Of a stretch of 49,287 nt of DNA, positions 4,598 to 26,829 are shown piece by piece; the first letter of the stretch is position 1, and each line of letters opens with the position of its first letter. The notes under the pieces were generated by a model that worked only from the letters and a program-made list of their open reading frames with translations, was not told the origin of the DNA and did no database searches. The DNA comes from Chamaesiphon sp. (GTDB lineage Bacteria > Cyanobacteriota > Cyanobacteriia > Cyanobacteriales > Chamaesiphonaceae), in contig CBDFFH010000019.1 in NCBI GenBank assembly GCA_965246715.1, forward strand, positions 1 to 49,287, in the 5' to 3' direction. The position numbers and the translations under genes were made by a program.

Positions 4598-6108
4598 CAG
4601 GTTAAACGCATCAAAACTTGATATGAGGCGATCGAATTCAATAATACATACAACTTAAGCAGTATTTATGAACTAAATACATTTACGACGAATTCAATTA
4701 GAACTGATGTATAGTATAAGGCAATATTTATTTAATTTAATGCAATATAAAGTAGTCGATCGAAGGAATAACTTAAATCGTCGATATATTATAGAAGTAA
4801 TTTGATTTCAACCAATAGTTCGTAAATTATAAAATACCTTCTAAAATTTCAGCCAAGTATTTGTCATCTATACCTGCTAGAAATCTCTTGCTTTTCACAC
4901 TTAATTTCCGACTTTTATTTTGACTAATTAAGTTAATAGCTATGTGCCGTAATACTGCAAAATTAGCTGGCGCATTATCTTTCCTAATTCGACTATAATC
5001 TTCTCTTAAAGAAACATCAAGTACCCAATGAAGTGAATTTTCTATCCCCCAATGACCTCTAATTGCTCCGGCGACTCTCTTGGCATTATTAGCTAAACTA
5101 CTAATAAAATAACGAGTCTCTATGGTGGTTTTATCCCCAATAGTTCTTACTGATTCAACCATCGCAATACTAGTCAATTTCATCCAGTTATGGGATGAAT
5201 CTATTCGATCGGCAACATCTGATATCATTAAATAATTACGGATTTCTTCCCTACCCCCATTAATCTCCTTAGTCCTGAAATCACTCAGATTGAAACCTGC
5301 GCCACCAGTTGCAATAGCCTGTTTAAATAGCCTTTCTACTTGGTCGTATAAACTTGGTTGATTCTTTTTCACAGCAATTACATAATCTGCATCTTTTTCA
5401 ACAATTTTTTTTACTATTTCTCTTTGACATCCCATTGCATCAATGGTAACTATACATCCGGCTAAATCTAGAACTTTAATTAATTCAGGAAGTGCTGTGA
5501 TTTCATTAGATTTGCCCTCAACCATTTTCTGTCCTAATACTAATCTATTAGTTACAGCCCATGCACTAACAGTATTTAGTACACCTTGTCCATTAGTATT
5601 ATCTCCTGAATTTCGAGATTGTTTGCCGTCAAGTGCAATTATTTCTCCTGCTGTTATTTTAGATATTCCTTTAACCCAACTCAGGAAACTTTTTTGAAAT
5701 TCTTCAGGATTAATTCGTGAAAATACCCTTCCAAATGTATCATGTGATGGAATACCATGCGGCAACTCTAAAAATTTACCTAGCCATTCCTTCTTCGCCA
5801 AACCATAAATTTCTATATCTATCCATGTATCAGCTCCAGATACTACAGCACAAATGGTAATGGTGATGATATCAATTAATTTATGCTTTTTCCCGCGCTC
5901 TGTCCTGTAGTCTTCTACACTCTCGAAGTGTTCTATAATACTATATTTTGGCTTCAGCTTCATTTTAGTTAAATTAAATTTGTTAAATTCTAACATAGTT
6001 AATTAGCTCTAACTATTACCTAGCAGTAATTACAAGATTTCTAGATGCTATTTATTCATTCGATCGTCAAAGTTTTTAGTAATAACAAATTTAAGTGCGT
6101 TTAACCTG
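4598..6108 (-). mobile_element. ISAs1-family insertion sequence, intact
   Basis: 13-bp terminal IRs CAGGTTAAACGCA (4598) and TGCGTTTAACCTG (6108). 10-bp target duplication ACCGATAAGT at 4588-4597 and 6109-6118. AT-rich. Confidence 0.95.
4827..5996 (-). CDS. ISAs1 family transposase
   Basis: PSHDTFGRVF, IALDGK, KSNEITA, TIDAMGCQ, HWGIENSLHWVLDV motifs. Confidence 0.95.
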   Translation of the reverse strand: MLEFNKFNLTKMKLKPKYSIIEHFESVEDYRTERGKKHKLIDIITITICAVVSGADTWIDIEIYGLAKKEWLGKFLELPHGIPSHDTFGRVFSRINPEEFQKSFLSWVKGISKITAGEIIALDGKQSRNSGDNTNGQGVLNTVSAWAVTNRLVLGQKMVEGKSNEITALPELIKVLDLAGCIVTIDAMGCQREIVKKIVEKDADYVIAVKKNQPSLYDQVERLFKQAIATGGAGFNLSDFRTKEINGGREEIRNYLMISDVADRIDSSHNWMKLTSIAMVESVRTIGDKTTIETRYFISSLANNAKRVAGAIRGHWGIENSLHWVLDVSLREDYSRIRKDNAPANFAVLRHIAINLISQNKSRKLSVKSKRFLAGIDDKYLAEILEGIL

Positions 6109-6510
6109 ACCGATAAGTCTATATTTAAGTTAGCCGATCGCAATTGAGTAATGGTAATTTCTGCTGGCAATCTAGCTTGCCAATGTCAGCCATTGCCCTT
6201 CCCATAAATATCGCAGCGCCGAATTACCTAATTTTATCGAACCATCCCAATTAACAATTTAATGATTAATTAATTTTTCCAATTCAAAAAAACTGGTATG
6301 TTTTTAAAGACTGGAGAACTTTAAGGTGCTAATTTACGTCTGAGATCTTCAAGGTACGAGAGTACATCTCAGCTCGAACTTCACCCAGATCGACCCCCAA
6401 TCGATCCATTCACCAACTTATCTTAGCGTCCGCTCGCACGCTAGAGCCTTAAGAAAGTCGTGAGGGAAAAAGTTTTGGCAGCCACTTGTAAAGGGAGTTA
6501 AACAAAACTC

Positions 6511-7491
6511 ATGCCTAGTGCAAAAACTCAAACGATCGGTCAACCCAGATATACAGGCGATATGGTGCGTACCTATCTTCATGAAATCGGTCGCGTACCA
6601 CTGCTGACTCACGAGCAAGAAATTTGCTACGGGAAGCAGGTGCAACAAATGATGCTGCTACAAGAGGTCAAGCAGAGCCTCGAACAGGTATTAGAGCGTC
6701 CGCCGACTACTATTGAATGGGCGAGTAAATCGACGCTTACAGAGACCGAACTCGACCGAGCATTGCGGCGCGGTCTTCAGGCAAAGCAAAAGATGATCGC
6801 CGCCAACCTTCGCTTGGTAGTTGCAATTGCTAAAAAATACCAAAAGCGCAACCTCGAATTTCTTGACTTGATTCAGGAAGGTTCGCTCGGACTAGAGCGC
6901 GGTGTTGAAAAATTCGATCCGACCCGAGGGTATAAATTCTCCACCTATGCTTACTGGTGGATCCGACAAGCAATCACCCGCGCCATCGCCCAGCAAGGTC
7001 GATCGATCCGACTGCCGATTCATATTACCGAAAAACTCAACAAGATCAAAAAAACCCAGCGGGAATTGTCCCAACAACTCGGACGCAGTGCGACTTCAGC
7101 TGAAATTGCCACCGCGCTCGAACTCGAACCCGCCCAAATTCGCGATTATCTTAACATTTCGCGCCAACCGATCTCACTCGATGTCCGGGTGGGGGATCGT
7201 CAAGATACCGAACTCTCGGAGCTGCTCGAAGATGGCGGGATCTCCCCAGAAAAATACACGGTGCAAGAGTCACTGCGCCAGGAGTTACAAGCTACCCTTG
7301 CCGAACTATCGGTTCAGCAGCAGGAAGTAATTAGTTTGCGGTTTGGGTTGGATGGCGGTAAAGAGCTATCGCTGGCAAAAGTTGGTGAAATTCTCAATCT
7401 CAGTCGCGAACGCGTGCGGCAATTAGAACATCAAGCGCTATCGCACTTCCGCCGCAGTCATAGCAGCTTCCGCGATTATGTCGCCAGTTAA
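6511..7491 (+). CDS. sigB: Group 2 RNA polymerase sigma factor (SigB-like)
   Basis: DMVRTYLHEIGRVPLL, ANLRLVVAIAKKY, DLIQEG, YKFSTYAYWWIRQ, region 4 SRERVRQ; no region 1.1. Confidence 0.85.
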   Translation: MPSAKTQTIGQPRYTGDMVRTYLHEIGRVPLLTHEQEICYGKQVQQMMLLQEVKQSLEQVLERPPTTIEWASKSTLTETELDRALRRGLQAKQKMIAANLRLVVAIAKKYQKRNLEFLDLIQEGSLGLERGVEKFDPTRGYKFSTYAYWWIRQAITRAIAQQGRSIRLPIHITEKLNKIKKTQRELSQQLGRSATSAEIATALELEPAQIRDYLNISRQPISLDVRVGDRQDTELSELLEDGGISPEKYTVQESLRQELQATLAELSVQQQEVISLRFGLDGGKELSLAKVGEILNLSRERVRQLEHQALSHFRRSHSSFRDYVAS

Positions 7492-14992: not shown

Positions 14993-16322
14993 TGTAGCCG
15001 GATGAACATCACATCAAAACTAGATTTGACAGGTGGATTTTTAGATTAGTTCAGTGAAGATTTGAACAGATGTTTGTGGAGCATTTTTAGAATCAAATCT
15101 GCTTGTACTGGTTTCTTGATAAATCCATTCGCACCGACAAATTTGGCATGTAGACGATCGATAGAACCATCTTTACCAGTGAGAATAACGATCGGAATAT
15201 TTTTTAATAATGGAGTTTTCCGAATCTGCTTGCAGACTTCATAACCATTCATAATTGGCATTAACAAGTCTAGAAAGATAAAATCTGGATTAGTTTTAAT
15301 TAAACTAGTAATAATTTTGAGCGGATCTTGAATTCCAAAAGAGCAGAAGTTATGTGCTGTTAAGATTTTCTCCAAACTTTTATAGACATAAATACTATCA
15401 TCGATACAAGCAACTAATGGCCGAGTTTTAGAGGTTGAGTTGTCAGAACTATCGTTATTAGTAATAGTTATGCTCTCATCGCTTTTAGCCACCCACTTGA
15501 ATTTAGATGCTAGCGGTAAGCTCAAACTGATTTCACCTAACAGCAACAATGGTAATAACGGTTTCGTAAAATCAAGTAAATTTTTCTGATGGTAAATTGC
15601 TAAACTTCGTAGCGAGCGATGACCGTCAAACGATAAAATTGCCTTAGCAACATCCGTTCGATCGATCGGCCAGTCGAACTTTGTTGAGATGTTTATAACA
15701 GGAGACAGACTAGGTGCATAAGCTACCCCTGTTAAGGTGACAAAAGCATGACTAAGTAGTGAGGAGCCGAAAAGTAGCAATATGAGGATGTTTGGGGTCA
15801 TACTTCTTCTTTGTGGGCGGCTTTTTTGCTCCTCGTGGGGACGACAAGAAACGTTTGAGATTCACATGACTTGCACATGCTCGCAAAAACTCCGCTAACA
15901 AAAGCACACTCATGTGTGCAAAAGGTTGCCAATCCTCAGCACAGATCGCAATCTCCATCCCTCGAAAAGTTGACTGGACTTCTTCAACCACATAATAATT
16001 GGATAAGCTCGACTCAATTTTTCCGGCACCATGAACATCTTTAAGCGCAGCTTTAACCGTAGATAGAATGTTAAACGCCATCAGTGCTATACAAAAAACG
16101 CACAATGCCGCTTTGGGATAACCCAATGTCTTGAGTTCACAATTAAAAGTATCAGTAATAACTTGGAACATCTGTTCGATTTGCCATCGATTGAGGTAAA
16201 GATCTGCCACCATGATGGCTGTCACCTCTGTCTGAGGCAAATTAGTTAACACTGTTACTTGTAAATCGCCATGACGAGTTGAGTGTTTCAGTTGAATCGT
16301 CACTCGGCGGACAAAAAGACCA

Positions 16323-17149
16323 GGCGTTGCTGGATTAGGATATGATCTAAGGCGATCGAGAGAAGTAACAAGAGCAAATATCTAAATGGAATGTCCTGAA
16401 TGTAGATCGTCTAATATCAATAAAAATGGGCGAATAAAGGGAAAGCAGAACCATATTTGTAAAGACTGCGGACGGCAATTTATAGATTGTTATGAAGCAC
16501 ACAGAGGATATTCACCACAAATCAAGCAGAAATGTTTGTCAATGTATGTTAATGGGATGGGATTTCGAGCAATAGAAAGAGTAATGGGTGTGCATAATAC
16601 AACTGTCATGGATTGGGTGAAGCAAGTAGGGGGAAATCTCCCAGATTACTATAATTCAGACCAAATACCAGAAGTTGGTGAGTTGGATGAGTTAGAGACG
16701 TTTGTTGGCTCAAAAAAAACAAGATCTGGCTCTGGACGGCAGTAAATCACTTTCAGATGGGTATTTTAGGATGGGTATTAGGCGACCACAGTGCTAAGAC
16801 ATTTAGACCGCTATGGGAGAATTTGGTAAGTACATGGAAATGTTATTTTTATGTGACGGATGGGTGGAGGGTCTATCCAATATTTATTCCAGATGGTGAC
16901 CAAATCGTGAGTAAAACTTATATGACAAGAGTTGAGGGTGAAAACACTAGGCTCAGACATTACTTAGCTCGATTAAAAAGAAAAACATTATGTTATTCTA
17001 AGTGCGAACAAATGCTAAAGCATTCTATTAGATTGTTAATTCATTATCTTAAATTTGGTGAAGTACCAACTCCTAATTCAGTTAGTTCTGGCGATCGACG
17101 GCACAGATTACCTCTCGATCGCCAAATCATATCTTAATCCAGCAACGCC
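16323..17149 (+). mobile_element. IS1-family insertion sequence (827 bp)
   Basis: Long imperfect IRs GGCGTTGCTGGATTA.GATATGAT; 8-bp target duplication AAAGACCA at 16315-16322 and 17150-17157. Confidence 0.93.
16386..17137 (+). CDS. IS1 transposase InsA-InsB, joined by a -1 frameshift
   Basis: Zn ribbon CPEC..CKDC and ELDE. A8C slippery run at 16712-16720 leads to NKIWLWTAV, YVTDGW, RVEGENTRLRHYLAR. Confidence 0.9.
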
Positions 17150-18611
17150 AAAGACCACTATCGAGTCGAACCTGTTGCTCGAAAATAGTGCCACTGTCAT
17201 TTTGCCCAACTGCCAATCTTGGTGTTATTTCCGTCCATTTCAAACCCAGGTGCTCTCGAATCACAAAACTGGCTCCATGTGTACTAATACCAGTCAAAAA
17301 GTCCTTGGTGCAAAAATTCCGGTCAGCAATCCATACTTGCCCTGCTTTGACCGTTTCGAGCACTAATGGTAGCAACGATCGCTCTTGAGCGTGAGCATCT
17401 TCTTCTGGAAATACATCCACGACCATTTCTCGCTGCGGGTCTAGTACCGCGATTGCTTGTCCTGGCAAGGCTCCTGCAACTTCTGGTCGTAATACCTTTA
17501 GTCGATGTTCTGTGCCCCCGATATGATTCCCATCAATGATTCTGACTTCGGATCCTGGTAAGACGACCTTAATTGCTTGAGTAAATTCTGTGACTACTGA
17601 GGAAAGTTGTTCGCCACTATACCGCACCAATGCCTGAGACAAATTAGGTTCTAGCCCATTGATTTTGGCATACAAGGATACTTTCGACACCCCCACTACT
17701 TTCTCGAATGCTTTGTAAGCGGCACCCACTGATGGATAAATCCCGCAGACGACTAAGCTCATGATTCCGACTACGTTTGAGAATAAGAGTTCTCTGGTGT
17801 ACTGCCGCTCGGCAGTGTCTTCAAACAACCGCTCTAGTTGCTCTGTGGCAAAGATTCTTTCCATAATTGCTCTTACCATCACTGTCAAAGGTGTCTGTTC
17901 TACAAATCTCTCAAAGATGTCACTAATCATCTTCAATTCCCTCACTCTGCTTAGGTTTTCAGCTTTCGAGTCAGATTATACTCGGCTTTTATGCCCTTTG
18001 AGGCTCTACCAGTACAACAGCTCACCTTAACAGGGGTAGTGCATAAGCAGCAAGCCCTACGTTCGTCCATTCTTGCCAAACTTGAATCGCTCCAGCTAAA
18101 ATTGGTTCGATATCCAGAATGGGTAAATTTGGATCGGTAACAATAAGATTACTGTTAATTGGTACTAGTTGATAAGATAATCGATCGCGTTTGTGTTGAC
18201 TGAATTGAATGATATCAAAAATAACTTCCTCGATCGCATGTTGTTGTGCCAATATATTAGAGTTTAAAAACATTTCCTCGTTATTAATAGATTTGACAAA
18301 GCGATCGAGCGGTAAATTAAGGCAAGCTACTGCTAAACTTCGTTGCCAGCGATTGCTTGAGTCGATGCCACCACTAATAGTTGCTAAGCGCCCCGATAAA
18401 AAGCAAAAAAACCAGTTCGGCAGCTCGTCTATTTTAACTATTAAGTTGCCGCTAAAATAATTCTGCTTGATATCATTTATCTGAATGATAAAATTTTTGA
18501 AACTAATATTAACATGCTCGTTTCGATCTTGGATACTTTGGCTCATGATTACTCAAGCGAACTCGTTGCTGTTTAAATACTAACTTTTACGGCGTAACGC
18601 ATACATTTATC

Positions 18612-21614: not shown

Positions 21615-24600
21615 TCACCCCGATGCTCTTCTAGTTAATCTGGTGGTTGTTAGCTCGTCCAATCCATTTAACCCAGCGATAAAATCTCTTGCCAGTCGAT
21701 CGATCCTACCGCTCTCACAACCATCGGGAACAGTTAAAAACAAGCTAACGGTACTAGTTAGCTCGCTAGTTGTGACTTGCGGACTCGGACGGACGAATAG
21801 ATCGAGTTGTTCGAGTTGAATTACCAAGCCGATGAGACAACCCTCCAAAATTCCTAGAGATTTTTCGCGTTCCTGGAGATCGGCAGTTACGATCTCGATC
21901 GTTAACACAGTATCAAATTCTGCCTCAAAATTAACTAGTGAATATAGCATTTGCCAATTACTTTTATCGACTAAAATTTGACTGGTAATTACCGCACCTC
22001 TAGCCAACTCAGCTTGTAAAATTCGAGCGGTAGAGCGCGTAACGTTTCTAGCGGTATTTTTGCAAGGTTCGATCGAAGACACGATTGGTAACCAATCCCT
22101 AGGCACATGCGCTTCATAAGCTCTGCCTACAGCTGTGAGCGATAGCGGCTCGCTCCAATCGTACCGACTCAGCAGATCGAAGAAATGAGCGAGCAAGGAT
22201 TCGATCGTGAGATCTTTACCCCGATAATCGATACAACTGTAAGCACACAACAACGACCAGGAAAATCCACCTAAAAATCCCCAGGAGTTGCCATAAATAC
22301 CGCGAGCTTTAGCCCAGCCTCGAACAGCTTTTAATAACAACTTAAAAGAGTCCGATGGTAGATGTTGTGAGACTAAATCCATAATGAGATCGGCATCCCA
22401 ACAGCCACTAATCGACTTCGGATTTTTAATCTGCGGTTTGAGCGCATGAAGATCGAGTTTTTCCCAACCATCAATCACTTCAACCTGGGTATACAGTAAA
22501 TCCAGCGATATCCCCTCGATTTGTAACCGCAGTACCGGAAATCTGGCATCGACGACTACTTGAGATCGATCGCATAATCCCTGCAAACATGCCTCCACCC
22601 TACCCAAAAATCGCTTACCAGCGACATAATTGGGAATCGTACAAATGACATCCACATCGCTATCCGAGCTGGCTACGCCCAATCTCGCCGAGCCGAGTAA
22701 GTGCAAAGTTGCCTCAAACCCCAAACATTCCGTACAAGCCTGCTGCACGATGGCTAAAACAGTCTCCCGTTGCAACCGTTCGGCAGGGCTTAATTCTGGC
22801 TCTAGGCGGGCAACTATCGCCATCAATTCGCTCGATTGAGTGACTGGAGGGATAAATTTACCCAACTCCACCAAATGTCGCGTCGCACAAGGTTCGTCGT
22901 TGCGACGACTGACTAAAGCGACTGCATCGACGGTAAATTTTACGGGATGCCATTGCGGTAATTTTGCTTTAGCTAGCGCGGGAGTATCGAATTGTCCGAC
23001 ACTCAAATGTGGCGTAAATCCCGCCTCGGTTTTGGTACTCTGTTCGTAACATTGAGGAAAGAGCTGATTTAGCCGAGCCTGCAACTCGTGTAATGCTCCT
23101 GCTGGCTGGACTACCGGACGCAGCCAAGCAGTTGCCGTCTTGCGATGGGTGAAAATTTGAAAATCAGTTAATGTGACGGTAAATGGCTCGATTGTTGCCA
23201 AGATCGGCGCGATTAGATCGACGACTTCCTCAAAATATTCATCCGGTAAAAATCCATACAGCAAGGTGATATGCGGTACGATTCGCACGAATCCCGCATC
23301 ATATTGTTGTCTGATTGCTTGAATTTGGGGAAATAGATCTTCAGGAGGAATGATTGCTAAGATGCTTTCATAGACTGGGCGAATCGTGGTTAAGCCATGA
23401 AAATTTTGGATTGTGCTCGGATATGAATCGATTTGTAATGACGATTTAGCTGCATTAGCAGTAGATTGAGGGTTAGACTCGGCAACTTTTAACACCGTAA
23501 AAATACCAAAATGATCTGAAGGATAAATTTGTTTGTTAGTACCGCTGACAGGGCTGCAGCCAAATAAATTTACCGATCGAGGTTGATAATTAGCCACTGG
23601 ATCTCGGCGGAGTAAAATGCGATCGAATCGAGCTGGTTTTCCTGCCAAACTCATCAACATCGCCAATGGATTGCACTCTGGATCGAATGTATAACCAGCT
23701 TCATCTGGATACAATTGGTTCCATAGATCGCTAAAATTAGCATAATTTACAATCTCATCCTGCTCGTTAGCTCGCGTATTAAAATCACCGACGATTAGGC
23801 AATCTCCCACTTGCTGTTCGAGATAACCGATGACTGTTGCTAGTTGCTGGATCCGTTTTTGTAAAGCATTTTCACCGCGATCGCTAGTTAGGTGAACGTT
23901 AGCGACACGAACGGATCGATCGTTAATCTGCCAATTGCCCACTAATACCCGCTTGTGTCCAGAAAATTGATATTCTAATAATTCAAATGGCCACCGTGAC
24001 ATCAATAAATTGCCATAAGGTTTGACATTATTCGCACTAGCAGATTCAGAAATATAATAATCTTTAACCCAATCTGTAGCTAAAATAAACGCAATCGATT
24101 CGGGAGTTACTTCCTGGATGGCGATAATATCAGCCTGAGTTTGTTGTAACTCATTGAGAATAGCTGGCAAACGTTTATCCGTTTGGATTTTATCTGCTTC
24201 ATGGAGATTGGAGAGAATATTATAGCTAGCAATAGTCAGCAAATCGAGATCGATCGCTGTTACTGTACCGGTAAATACCCGCCACTCATTAGCCACATGA
24301 TGATAAACCGATCGTGATTTAAATTCAGCTCGATTGTTAGCAATTAACGCGGCTAAATCTTCTTGGCTAGCTCTCGTAGGATCTAATTTCCATGCAATAG
24401 TAGGTAATTTGTCTGTCGAGATGAGATCGATTCTATCATCTCGATCCCAAACGATGACATCACCACAGCGAATATAGCGAACTCGATGCCACGGAATATC
24501 GCTATTGTCGTCCCACTGAGCTAAAGGTTTTTCTCTAATCCCATCGGCGATCCGTTCGTGAAATCCGGCAATAAACATATTGCGATTCAGCCGAGTGTCC

Positions 24601-24668
24601 CAAATGATGCGGTTATATACTTCCGCGATCGTTGCCATTTTTTGTTTTTCTGGTTTTTGATTTGACAT
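21615..24668 (-). CDS. Multidomain RNA-repair protein: MJ1316/DUF504 + EEP phosphoesterase + 2H phosphoesterase + eukaryote-type poly(A) polymerase
   Basis: MJ1316: YNRIIWD..IPWHRVRY..VWDR. EEP: SYNIL, IQEV, GDFN, RFDRI, SDHFG. 2H: PHITL and PHLSV. PAP: GSARLGV..SDVD, GISLDLLY, WAKARGIYGNSWGFLGG, PCKNTARNVTRST. Confidence 0.88.
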   Translation of the reverse strand: MSNQKPEKQKMATIAEVYNRIIWDTRLNRNMFIAGFHERIADGIREKPLAQWDDNSDIPWHRVRYIRCGDVIVWDRDDRIDLISTDKLPTIAWKLDPTRASQEDLAALIANNRAEFKSRSVYHHVANEWRVFTGTVTAIDLDLLTIASYNILSNLHEADKIQTDKRLPAILNELQQTQADIIAIQEVTPESIAFILATDWVKDYYISESASANNVKPYGNLLMSRWPFELLEYQFSGHKRVLVGNWQINDRSVRVANVHLTSDRGENALQKRIQQLATVIGYLEQQVGDCLIVGDFNTRANEQDEIVNYANFSDLWNQLYPDEAGYTFDPECNPLAMLMSLAGKPARFDRILLRRDPVANYQPRSVNLFGCSPVSGTNKQIYPSDHFGIFTVLKVAESNPQSTANAAKSSLQIDSYPSTIQNFHGLTTIRPVYESILAIIPPEDLFPQIQAIRQQYDAGFVRIVPHITLLYGFLPDEYFEEVVDLIAPILATIEPFTVTLTDFQIFTHRKTATAWLRPVVQPAGALHELQARLNQLFPQCYEQSTKTEAGFTPHLSVGQFDTPALAKAKLPQWHPVKFTVDAVALVSRRNDEPCATRHLVELGKFIPPVTQSSELMAIVARLEPELSPAERLQRETVLAIVQQACTECLGFEATLHLLGSARLGVASSDSDVDVICTIPNYVAGKRFLGRVEACLQGLCDRSQVVVDARFPVLRLQIEGISLDLLYTQVEVIDGWEKLDLHALKPQIKNPKSISGCWDADLIMDLVSQHLPSDSFKLLLKAVRGWAKARGIYGNSWGFLGGFSWSLLCAYSCIDYRGKDLTIESLLAHFFDLLSRYDWSEPLSLTAVGRAYEAHVPRDWLPIVSSIEPCKNTARNVTRSTARILQAELARGAVITSQILVDKSNWQMLYSLVNFEAEFDTVLTIEIVTADLQEREKSLGILEGCLIGLVIQLEQLDLFVRPSPQVTTSELTSTVSLFLTVPDGCESGRIDRLARDFIAGLNGLDELTTTRLTRRASG

Positions 24669-24746
24669 AATGTTATTAAAATCTTCATGAAGTCCCTTCG
24701 CTTAATAACCTTTCTAAGGGAGATTTATTACCCTTACATAGCACTG

Positions 24747-25895
24747 TTAAACTTTAACGACGTAATCTAATTGATGAGCTTCGGTAATGTTGGGAATTTC
24801 CACGCGATCGCGAAATCGATAGATAACGGCAGTAGGAACTTGCCTCGCTCGATTGCGATTTTGTTGTAATACTCGCTCGATCGGAACTTCCAGATACACG
24901 ATCCTGATTCGTGCATGATAGCTAGCAAATAACCGAATTAAACCCGATCGAATCGGTTTGACGATATTAGTTGCATTCCAGACAAATGGCGTTGCAGCTT
25001 GCAGATAGCCTTTTGCTAAATCTTTGCCAGCTTGGACGATCTCACCCTGCTCGGCTGTCGGAGAAATTTCCATTTCTGCGCGCAACCTGTCGAGTGATAC
25101 CATTGCTAAATCTGCATGATTTTGTTCGATCCAATAATCCTTACCAGTACCAGGTAAACCACACATGAGAATTACTTCTAATTGGGTATCGTCGTAAGCT
25201 GCATAAGTCGGATCGGCATCTTCTTTCTGAAAATACATAAATCGACTATGCGCCGATGCGAATGGATAAGGTCGATCGAAACAATCATGCTCGCGACAAA
25301 ATTCTCGAAAGAAATCGATCGTCTCTAATAATCTCTCTCGATCGGCACAAATCCGCCCCATAACATCTGCCTCAGCTATCAATGCCAACCAATCGCAGCG
25401 AACTAATTGGCTCACTCTAATAATCGATTTGAGTGGGCGATCTTTATCCCAAAACCATAACGGTAAACTTCCATATTCGACGATCGCGACGATTGCTTCG
25501 CGAATTGCAAATGGAGTATGCAAATCTTGCAAAATTTGCCGTACCATCCGCGCACCCAAAGTACCATGTCCCTTAGCAGTAATCTTGCCATCTGCATCTA
25601 CTTTAATAGACTCAGGTTTTGCAATATCATGAAACAAGGCTGCGGCAAATAAGATCGATCGATCTGTTGGATTCAGCGTTTGCCAAGTTGGTAGAGACAC
25701 TAAAGATTCACAGACTAATCGTGTATGTATCCATACATTGCCTTCGGCATGATAAAGCGGGTTTTGTTGGCATTGTGCTAGTTTTTGCAAGTATGGAAAT
25801 CTTGCTAAGATCGCTGCCCAATCAATTTGTAAATTTGATAGCAATGGACAATCGGGAAATGTCCAACTTGGATCTACAGTTACAATGGTATTCAT
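24747..25895 (-). CDS. HD phosphohydrolase fused to a P-loop (AAA_33/PNK-like) kinase
   Basis: HAEGNVWIHT, ALFHDIAKP, GLPGTGKD, WNATN. Confidence 0.88.
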   Translation of the reverse strand: MNTIVTVDPSWTFPDCPLLSNLQIDWAAILARFPYLQKLAQCQQNPLYHAEGNVWIHTRLVCESLVSLPTWQTLNPTDRSILFAAALFHDIAKPESIKVDADGKITAKGHGTLGARMVRQILQDLHTPFAIREAIVAIVEYGSLPLWFWDKDRPLKSIIRVSQLVRCDWLALIAEADVMGRICADRERLLETIDFFREFCREHDCFDRPYPFASAHSRFMYFQKEDADPTYAAYDDTQLEVILMCGLPGTGKDYWIEQNHADLAMVSLDRLRAEMEISPTAEQGEIVQAGKDLAKGYLQAATPFVWNATNIVKPIRSGLIRLFASYHARIRIVYLEVPIERVLQQNRNRARQVPTAVIYRFRDRVEIPNITEAHQLDYVVKV

Positions 25896-26040
25896 CTAAA
25901 CATACCTGTAAATAATTTATTGAAATCGGTTCTGTAAGTACTGATTTATGCTAGTAACTATGGAAAAAGGTAAAGTATATCGCTCTAGAGATTAGTTATA
26001 CAAACCCATTCTTGCAATATCTATGACAGATAAAAAGGAT

Positions 26041-26829
26041 TTAAATAATCCCAAATAAATCGACTCCAGCTTGTAGCTGATTGGGGATAATCGGACGACT
26101 CAACCAATGACTTTCAGACTGCAAAATCGTTGTTAAAAAGTCCGCACGGACGTATTTATAACGTGCCACTATCAACTCTGCTGTCTCGACTTTGAGATAC
26201 AATCCTTCCATCAACAAACTTTGATTTGTCTGTTGGATCGATCGATCTGCATCTAACCCTTGCTCGATACAAAGTTCGCGCAATCGATCGATATGTCCGG
26301 GTTGAATAAAATGCGATTGTTGCAGTAGGCTTACGAGTTGCTTGTGCGACTGGAGTTTGCCTGCAAATAACACTGGTACCGAAGCTAAAGGTAATCCTTG
26401 TAATAGATTGCTTCGCGCCGCCGTACTGAGAAAATTACCGCTAGCTCGATCGAGTAAATCGTATTCTAAGAAATAGTGCGGCAACCTGTTATAAAATACC
26501 GTATGTTTGGCATATAGCCATTCACCGTAGAGAAGATATCGATCGCCTAAAACATCCCACAATGCCGCATAATGACTGTGCGCCCATTGTTTGAAGAGGT
26601 TAAAATGCCGCTCGCGCGGGCCACCAGTTAAATAATGTCCGCGACTTTGCAATCGCAACTGTCCTTGCAAATCAAAGCTAATTGCCGCATTCGCGCCATC
26701 GACTTTTTCTTCTACTACGACGTACTCATTCGCAATTGCGCTAAATGGTACGCTATCTAAATCTTCATCCCCAGGTTGGTACCGCGAACCCTCAATATGT
26801 GGGGTTCTGGGATATTTTTGCATCAACAT
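26041..26829 (-). CDS. ATP-dependent RNA ligase family protein (Rnl-type nucleotidyltransferase)
   Basis: KYPRTPH, motif I EEKVDGAN, LQSRGH, YGEW, EGLYLK, RYKYVR. Confidence 0.9.
   Translation of the reverse strand: MLMQKYPRTPHIEGSRYQPGDEDLDSVPFSAIANEYVVVEEKVDGANAAISFDLQGQLRLQSRGHYLTGGPRERHFNLFKQWAHSHYAALWDVLGDRYLLYGEWLYAKHTVFYNRLPHYFLEYDLLDRASGNFLSTAARSNLLQGLPLASVPVLFAGKLQSHKQLVSLLQQSHFIQPGHIDRLRELCIEQGLDADRSIQQTNQSLLMEGLYLKVETAELIVARYKYVRADFLTTILQSESHWLSRPIIPNQLQAGVDLFGII

Follow-up and report, generated by a model that had tools for sequence, protein, structure and literature searches.

An RNA-ligase-type gene, an HD-kinase gene and a poly(A) polymerase fusion in Chamaesiphon: a predicted RNA end-repair locus

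A 49,287-nucleotide stretch of DNA from Chamaesiphon sp. (GenBank assembly GCA_965246715.1, contig CBDFFH010000019.1, positions 1 to 49,287; hereafter the window) carries three genes that encode an RNA-ligase-type adenylyltransferase (the ligase), a protein that joins an HD phosphoesterase to a P-loop kinase (the HD-kinase), and a 1017-amino acid (aa) protein in which MJ1316, EEP and 2H domains precede a canonical-type poly(A) polymerase (PAP) (the fusion). On balance, we lean toward a reading in which the trio is an RNA end-repair pathway and the fusion is an optional helper that cleans the broken 3′ end and adds one or a few nucleotides before sealing, in the manner of RlaP. The direct results are the domains and folds, the conserved catalytic residues, the gene linkage, and the accessory distribution of the fusion. 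The locus is an added member of a widespread, database-named family that is computationally predicted to act in RNA end repair, and it is not distinctive within that family: the named MJ1316-EEP-2H-PAP proteins have the same architecture, and nothing was found that sets the window copy apart. Canonical poly(A) polymerase is usually considered eukaryotic; an intact copy beside a bacterial RNA ligase and an end-healing kinase offers a direct test case for repair fill-in versus decay tagging outside mRNA processing, and all three proteins look soluble, cloneable and assayable.

Locus and gene layout

A first-pass annotation of the window, made from the sequence without database searches, had placed three co-oriented open reading frames (ORFs) at this locus. 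All three lie on the minus strand with the limits it gave, and every motif that it had read is present: KVDG in the ligase, the HD and P-loop motifs, the MJ1316 and EEP domains, two 2H motifs, and the GS..DxD..D and GFLGG signatures of the polymerase. The genes and the domains of the fusion are as follows.

26041..26829, minus strand: ATP-dependent RNA-ligase-type adenylyltransferase, 262 aa, catalytic domain alone, without a C-terminal or OB domain (Pfam PF09414, fold)
24747..25895, minus strand: HD phosphoesterase plus P-loop kinase of the HD-Pnk type, 382 aa (Pfam HD and AAA_33)
21615..24668, minus strand: fusion of MJ1316, EEP, 2H and canonical PAP, 1017 aa (Pfam, AlphaFold)
24441..24638, minus strand: MJ1316 domain of the fusion, aa 11-76, predicted to read RNA ends with a cyclic phosphate (Pfam PF04457)
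23481..24242, minus strand: EEP phosphoesterase domain of the fusion, aa 143-396, TDP2-like (profile and fold)
22866..23375, minus strand: 2H phosphoesterase domain of the fusion, aa 432-601, YjcG-like (Pfam PF13563)
21618..22838, minus strand: canonical-type PAP region of the fusion, aa 611-1017, with catalytic, central and RRM-like domains and without a C-terminal tail (fold, profile)

The Pfam matches for all three proteins exceed the Pfam cut-offs, and the host genome holds one copy of each gene. The intergenic gaps are 145 bp from ligase to HD-kinase and 78 bp from HD-kinase to fusion; neither gap contains a terminator-like site, and promoter and terminator counts across the window are at chance level. 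The trio is described as a putative operon on the basis of co-orientation, short gaps and conservation. Recent transfer of the locus was considered and is not supported, as codon usage is typical of the genome (86th-98th percentile), with a lowish GC content at third codon positions (9th-22nd percentile).

The polymerase region of the fusion

The first-pass annotation had assigned the C-terminal domain of the fusion to the nuclear-type PAPs, and both profile searches and the predicted fold agree with that assignment over PcnB/CCA enzymes and over terminal uridylyltransferases (TUTases). Pfam identified PAP_NTPase at residues 657-764 and PAP_central at residues 774-909 (E-value [E] 1.7e-24). 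The top PDB sequence matches of the fusion are human PAP-gamma, bovine PAP-alpha, Pla1 and Pap1 (E 1e-34 to 1e-27), which at the level of sequence is far beyond chance. A profile of 16 bacterial PAP regions matched canonical PAPs at E 2e-73 to 1e-62, Cid1 at 2e-11, Trf4 at 9e-7 and CdnC at 5e-4. No match to a class II PAP/CCA enzyme (PcnB) was found in Pfam or NCBIfam at E 0.05, and none was among 25 PDB profile matches.

AlphaFold predicted the fusion as four separate modules, with a mean predicted local distance difference test score (pLDDT) of 86.7 and a predicted template modeling score of 0.48. Model residues 611-1016 align to residues 36-491 of human PAP-gamma (Z 37.3, root-mean-square deviation [rmsd] 2.5, 393 residues aligned), and because the alignment covers this range, the catalytic, central and RRM-like domains are all present. 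Matches to canonical PAP folds overall reach Z 32-37, whereas matches to the TUTases URT1, CutA and Cid1 are at Z ≤25 and stop at about residue 914-917. The three-domain fold, the Asp triad, the GFLGG region, and the pattern P-x-x-T/S...N-x-x-x-N are thus common to the window PAP and to human PAP-gamma, bovine PAP-alpha, yeast Pap1 and S. pombe Pla1; unlike these enzymes, the window PAP sits behind three end-processing domains and lacks a C-terminal tail. To our knowledge, its bacterial host has no cleavage/polyadenylation machinery.

The catalytic motif residues G659, S660, D671, D673 and D723 correspond to bovine PAP G101, S102, D113, D115 and D167, and the signature WAKARGIYGNSWGFLGG at fusion residues 785-801 aligns to bovine W230-G246. 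The Asp triad (D671/D673/D723) occurs in 95/95 full-length close relatives and in 125 of the 126 distant family representatives that cover the site. Agreement is more mixed around bovine N202, K228, K232, Y237, N239, V247 and T317, which we take to be residues of the nucleotide pocket. R783, K787, Y792, N794 and S864 are like bovine K228, K232, Y237, N239 and T317, whereas L658, S754, F802 and R874 are unlike bovine F100, N202, V247 and Y327. Within the cyanobacterial branch (n = 95), the first set is largely kept (R/K783 in 94, K787 in 94, Y792 in 70, N794 in 94, T/S864 in 94); across the family, the positions of bovine Y237 and N239 drift, with Y792 in 25/136 representatives and N794 in 50/136. 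Because the triad is near-invariant and the pocket residues are mixed or drifting, metal chemistry appears better conserved than base selection in the fused PAPs. Judging from these residues, AMP addition would be the likeliest activity of the PAP region in the cyanobacterial branch.

The four noncanonical positions, the frequent loss of the gene in congeners, and the truncated or split copies at three loci (L011, L026 and L029) could be taken as signs of decay in a PAP part that is simply carried along, with function resting on the phosphoesterases alone. We give this reading hardly any credence: it sits poorly with the retention of the triad in close and distant relatives, with the 42 synonymous and 29 nonsynonymous codon differences between the PAP regions of the window and of genome G011, and with the persistence of the PAP in relatives that lose the 2H domain.

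The MJ1316, EEP and 2H domains

The MJ1316 domain (residues 11-76; Pfam PF04457, E 6.5e-18) keeps W23, D24, P59, H61, R62, W74 and R76 in 95/95 full-length relatives. MJ1316 is described as recognizing RNA 2′-3′ cyclic ends and as fused to RNA-repair domains across eukaryotes (PMC6514570), a prediction that the same source credits to Burroughs and Aravind 2016.

The EEP domain matches Pfam at residues 147-386 (E 2.7e-14), and its residues N150, E186, H259, D295, N297, D349 and D385 occur in 95/95 full-length relatives, with H386 in 94/95. A profile comparison against the PDB placed TDP2 first (E 1.6e-22), followed by CCR4 (8e-7), nocturnin (2e-5), and PDE12 and ANGEL2 (both 3e-3). In the predicted fold, TDP2 again came first, at Z 28.8 (rmsd 2.0, 234 residues aligned), with sphingomyelinase at Z 24.5 and nocturnin at Z 23.0. 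TDP2 is therefore the nearest solved relative in sequence profile and predicted fold; identity to it is just 22-27%, and TDP2-like activity is predicted at most. The first-pass annotation had cast the EEP domain as a remover of phosphates, and its intact catalytic residues are consistent with that role; given its closeness to TDP2, which removes 5′ adducts, its preference may be for either end.

The 2H domain matches Pfam PF13563 at residues 441-592 (E 6e-35), carries the motifs HIT (466-468) and HLS (554-556), and has BSU11850 as its best PDB match (E 1.3e-9; YjcG-like). Both histidines occur in 134/136 family representatives. The first motif reads HxN in 91 of these and HxT in 39; the window copy has HxT, and 48/95 close relatives have HxN. 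At least 9 of 120 listed close relatives have an internal deletion of the 2H domain and retain the EEP and PAP motifs, so the strict order of events suggested in the first-pass annotation, in which 2H opens the cyclic phosphate and EEP or HD then removes the phosphate, is not required. Many Streptomyces fusions also have no 2H domain (13 of 60 among the matches listed, in a search limited to 709 aa).

Some enzymes of the 2H and EEP families break down nucleotide signals. The PDE12 match to the EEP domain and the faint CdnC profile match to the PAP could accordingly suggest a signaling system, in which the transferase makes a soluble oligonucleotide in the style of OAS or a CD-NTase and 2H and EEP erase it. 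This seems very improbable, as the matches to canonical PAPs are some 60 orders of magnitude better than the one to CdnC, the fold keeps its RRM-like RNA-binding domain, and the genes that adjoin the fusion are the ligase and the kinase, with no conserved effector gene among them.

The ligase and the HD-kinase

The ligase has the sequence EEKVDGAN at residues 40-47 and matches RNA_ligase (PF09414) at E 2.3e-34. Motif I (KxDG) and motifs III-V are present within an adenylyltransferase fold, and K42, D44, G45, E103, K225 and R228 are invariant in 44/44 distinct relatives. Foldseek searches with the AlphaFold model (pLDDT 71.9) identified T4 Rnl2, archaeal Rnl3, Naegleria Rnl and REL1 as the top matches (E 2e-6 to 1e-4), and the DNA ligases of African swine fever virus, T4 and T7 ranked lower (E 1.4e-3 or worse). 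A PDB profile search from the ligase alignment gave weak matches (best E 0.019). Neither a T4_Rnl2_C match nor a C-terminal nick-sealing domain was found in the 262-aa protein, whose model stops after the catalytic domain; we therefore describe the ligase as Rnl2-like and not as an Rnl2.

The HD-kinase carries FHDIAK at residues 88-93 and GLPGTGKD at residues 246-253, with Pfam matches to HD (E 1e-6) and AAA_33 (E 3e-20). H49, H57, H89, D90, D177, G246, G251, K252, D269 and R272 are invariant in 42/42 distinct relatives, and the kinase part matches the bacterial Pnkp kinase and PSTK. When the two proteins, ligase and HD-kinase, were modeled together as a complex, the score was 0.00, which speaks neither for nor against an interaction.

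The same pairing is known from Runella slithyformis, in which a ligase gene lies directly upstream of an HD plus P-loop kinase gene, as in the window (PMC6097658). The Runella HD-Pnk is a 2′,3′-phosphoesterase and 5′ kinase, and its cluster also includes Tpt1 and a methyltransferase-HIT protein (PMC6097658). In Deinococcus, radiation induces a ligB-PARG-kinase operon, and radiation resistance requires the kinase that it encodes (PMC6300522). The accessory partner differs among these systems: it is the MJ1316-EEP-2H-PAP fusion in the window, Tpt1/HIT in Runella and PARG in Deinococcus (DR_B0100/DR_B0098). Deinococcus plasmid proteins align with as much as 95% of the window HD-kinase (E 1e-32). 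The D. radiodurans plasmid match covers the kinase part alone (E 3e-6), and no match to the window ligase was found on that plasmid at E 1e-5.

These comparisons bear on an alternative role in the repair of DNA breaks or mixed DNA/RNA breaks, in which the EEP domain strips 5′ protein adducts, and the HD-kinase heals the ends, which the polymerase then extends and the ligase joins. The nearness of the EEP domain to TDP2 fits such a role, as do the Deinococcus operon and the title of the Runella report, which calls HD-Pnk a DNA/RNA end-healing enzyme (PMC6097658). We nevertheless consider it quite unlikely. The ligase lacks an OB domain, folds nearest to RNA ligases and gave no match on the D. 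radiodurans plasmid at E 1e-5; canonical PAP, 2H and MJ1316 are RNA-linked domains; one relative has an RWD domain; and a Bacteroidota-like locus described below (L042) adds a T4 Rnl2-type ligase.

Gene linkage and a proposed repair pathway

Within the genus, the trio occurs at a single syntenic site, which counts as one event. Linkage recurs outside that site. In another cyanobacterium (locus L011), ligase, HD-kinase and fusion genes are linked with gaps of 6 and 15 bp. Among 27 metagenome loci with a long match to the fusion, 12 have a ligase or kinase neighbor (two of the loci are near-duplicates). On the Bacteroidota-like contig L042 (3879-10467), the fusion lies between two different RNA ligases upstream and an HD-kinase downstream; one of these ligases has a T4 Rnl2 C domain, and a 109-aa ORF without a Pfam match lies between the fusion and the HD-kinase. 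In Actinobacteria (Embleya, two records, and Nonomuraea), a single ligase-kinase gene has a stop codon that overlaps the ATG of the fusion gene in 3/3 named records, and the encoded protein is only 22-28% identical to the window ligase. Based on our reading of the translations, the HD-like middle of this actinobacterial protein seems to lack the HD motif (L135-L137, about 5050-6998; L055:2-919).

The pathway that we favor would run in five steps. The MJ1316 domain would bind the damaged RNA end, as predicted by others. The 2H domain, the EEP domain or both, redundantly with HD, would then turn a 2′,3′-cyclic phosphate or a 2′/3′-phosphate into a 3′-OH, as family chemistry and intact active sites suggest, and the P-loop kinase would phosphorylate the 5′-OH, as in the HD-Pnk literature. 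The PAP would add untemplated nucleoside monophosphates (NMPs), probably mostly AMP in the cyanobacterial branch, either making up for nucleotides that were lost or providing an end that the ligase can use. Finally, the ligase would be adenylated and would join the ends.

Three features of relatives fit this sequence of healing, extension and sealing. In the Ploeotia vitrea protein, MJ1316-EEP-2H is followed by a prim-pol domain (PPL4/AEP) in the place of the PAP, and in another member an AAA_33 kinase is inserted between the 2H and EEP domains; together, these arrangements suggest that the module for adding nucleotides can be exchanged and is tied to end healing. With its HD apparently degenerate, the actinobacterial partner would leave 3′ healing to the fusion.

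Known systems offer parallels. Published work predicts that nucleotidyltransferases encoded next to RNA ligases put back missing bases, and states that 2H domains resolve cyclic phosphates (PMC7824862, PMC9503650). RlaP adds 1-2 NMPs to damaged RNA and is needed for restoring over-damaged tRNA (PMC12776372). Like the window PAP, RlaP (PF10127) is a transferase of the Pol-beta superfamily that is encoded beside RNA ligases, and it serves as our functional model; unlike RlaP, the fusion has no PF10127 match (Pfam, E 0.05), so it belongs to a different family. The T4 Pnkp/Rnl1, fungal Trl1 and bacterial Pnkp-Hen1 systems follow the same logic of ligase, 5′ kinase and 3′ phosphoesterase, whereas in the window the candidates for 3′ healing are HD, 2H and EEP, a polymerase is added, and the locus has no Hen1 methylase. 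In the literature searched, which did not reach most subscription papers, we found no biochemical study of an MJ1316-PAP fusion.

Elsewhere, the host genome has matches to RtcB and to RlaP as well as a Tpt1/KptA gene, suggesting that several RNA repair routes coexist. Mutual exclusion between the fusion and RlaP was considered and rejected, as separate RlaP genes occur elsewhere in 5/5 genomes tested.

Distribution of the fusion and evidence against the pathway

Several observations weigh against the pathway proposed above. In a sample of 400 cyanobacterial genomes, the ligase occurs in 25 and the fusion in 1, which makes the fusion dispensable, and in the sole genome with both, the fusion is distant from the ligase pair. 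At 15 of the 27 metagenome loci, there is no ligase or kinase neighbor (6 of these have <1.6 kb of upstream sequence), and these 15 include all five myxobacteria-like high-GC loci; a lone fusion copy lies on a conjugative plasmid of Calothrix brevissima NIES-22 (L134:8995-11970), which is a possible route of spread. On paper, the HD-Pnk already covers what 2H and EEP would do. The EEP domain lies far from ANGEL2 and closest to TDP2, an enzyme of 5′ adducts. The Runella ligase was adenylated but joined no substrate that was tried (PMC6097658).

The ligase and HD-kinase are more constant companions. In the same 400-genome sample, the HD-kinase is within 1.5 kb of the ligase at 22/25 ligase loci, directly downstream as in the window. 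Of 27 genomes of the genus, 15 carry an intact ligase gene and 8 an intact fusion gene; each of those 8 also has the ligase. The fusion has undergone a clean or near-clean deletion in three congeners. In G005, a 52-aa remnant of the end of the fusion lies behind intact ligase and HD-kinase genes (L023:7330-7485), and in G024 and G017 the HD-kinase gene stands directly before a HEAT gene, with the fusion gone. Because the ligase is far commoner than the fusion and the fusion is lost in congeners and often stands alone, ligase and HD-kinase form a common core, and the fusion is an accessory, optional and sometimes independent helper. The three-gene unit of the first-pass annotation therefore holds in part: the modules are co-conserved in three bacterial phyla, but their combination is not fixed.

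Among 58 neighbors scanned, which were drawn from a list of 97 and a few additional genes, no further conserved partner was found. The downstream HEAT-repeat gene was considered as a partner and excluded, as its linkage is within the genus alone. Three other neighbors were observed at single sites or in few genomes: an ADP-ribosylglycohydrolase gene directly upstream of a fusion gene on the same strand (L041:5018-5938), a divergent Band-7/SPFH gene adjoining a ligase/HD-kinase pair (L146:6706-7572, genome G191), and an ORF of ~100 aa without a Pfam match between ligase and HD-kinase in two congeners (L013:5052-5351 and L017:6267-6578).

Poly(A) is a decay signal in bacteria. The fusion could thus heal and tag RNA for decay, cleaning blocked 3′ ends and oligoadenylating fragments for 3′ exonucleases, either in parallel to the ligase or apart from it. 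A single chain holds every activity domain needed for this, the fusion stands alone in many genomes and in protists, and all three PAP domains, including the RRM-like domain, are kept; in the cyanobacterial branch, so largely are the residues that match bovine K228, K232, Y237, N239 and T317. The recurrent tight linkage to a ligase and a 5′ kinase, with overlapping stop and start codons in Actinobacteria, argues against it, as do the absence of an exonuclease among the 58 neighbors and the family-wide drift at the positions of Y237 and N239. We regard tagging for decay as unlikely, while giving it some weight, and we continue to favor end repair.

Family breadth and phylogeny

A profile search of 1.84 billion representative sequences identified 2052 proteins at E 1e-30 or better. 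Domain order was read in 146 of the best 150 representatives, of which 111 have MJ-EEP-2H-PAP and 6 have 2H-EEP-PAP-MJ. Based on 30 members that were looked up, plus relatives, named bacterial members come from Chamaesiphon, Nostoc, Calothrix, Aureispira, Pyxidicoccus, Myxococcales and Streptomyces, and named protist members come from Capsaspora, Pelomyxa, Balamuthia, Clastostelium, Paratrimastix, Soliformovum and Ploeotia. A Soliformovum relative has an N-terminal RWD domain and no PAP. The family is deep, with members in four bacterial groups and in several protists. The arrangement is not special to cyanobacteria, and protists also have the four domains joined in one chain. No relative was found in the viral contigs and phages scanned.

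Trees were built from fused members only, and the approximately unbiased (AU) test was applied to 20 named rows. The window fusion groups with Chamaesiphon sequences (support 100/100), and the cyanobacteria join Bacteroidota (99/99); the protists take no firm position in these trees, and a single eukaryote clade among the fused members is not rejected (p-AU 0.16 and 0.17).

Fused bacterial PAPs bear on where the eukaryotic enzyme came from, and a PAP tied to an RNA ligase and an end-healing kinase could also explain why the Runella HD-Pnk-linked ligase joined no standard substrate. A bolder reading, which we consider quite unlikely, holds that they are an old bacterial RNA-repair lineage and the source of the eukaryotic mRNA PAP, and that the enzyme refills nucleotides lost at the break and so supplies the end needed by an otherwise inactive HD-Pnk-linked ligase.

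Other features of the window

No Rfam match was found within the window. At 15046-18546, a response-regulator gene that is whole in genome G011 (391 aa) is present in two pieces separated by transposase ORFs at 15752-17945, and these ORFs are themselves broken by a second small element at 16386-17137.

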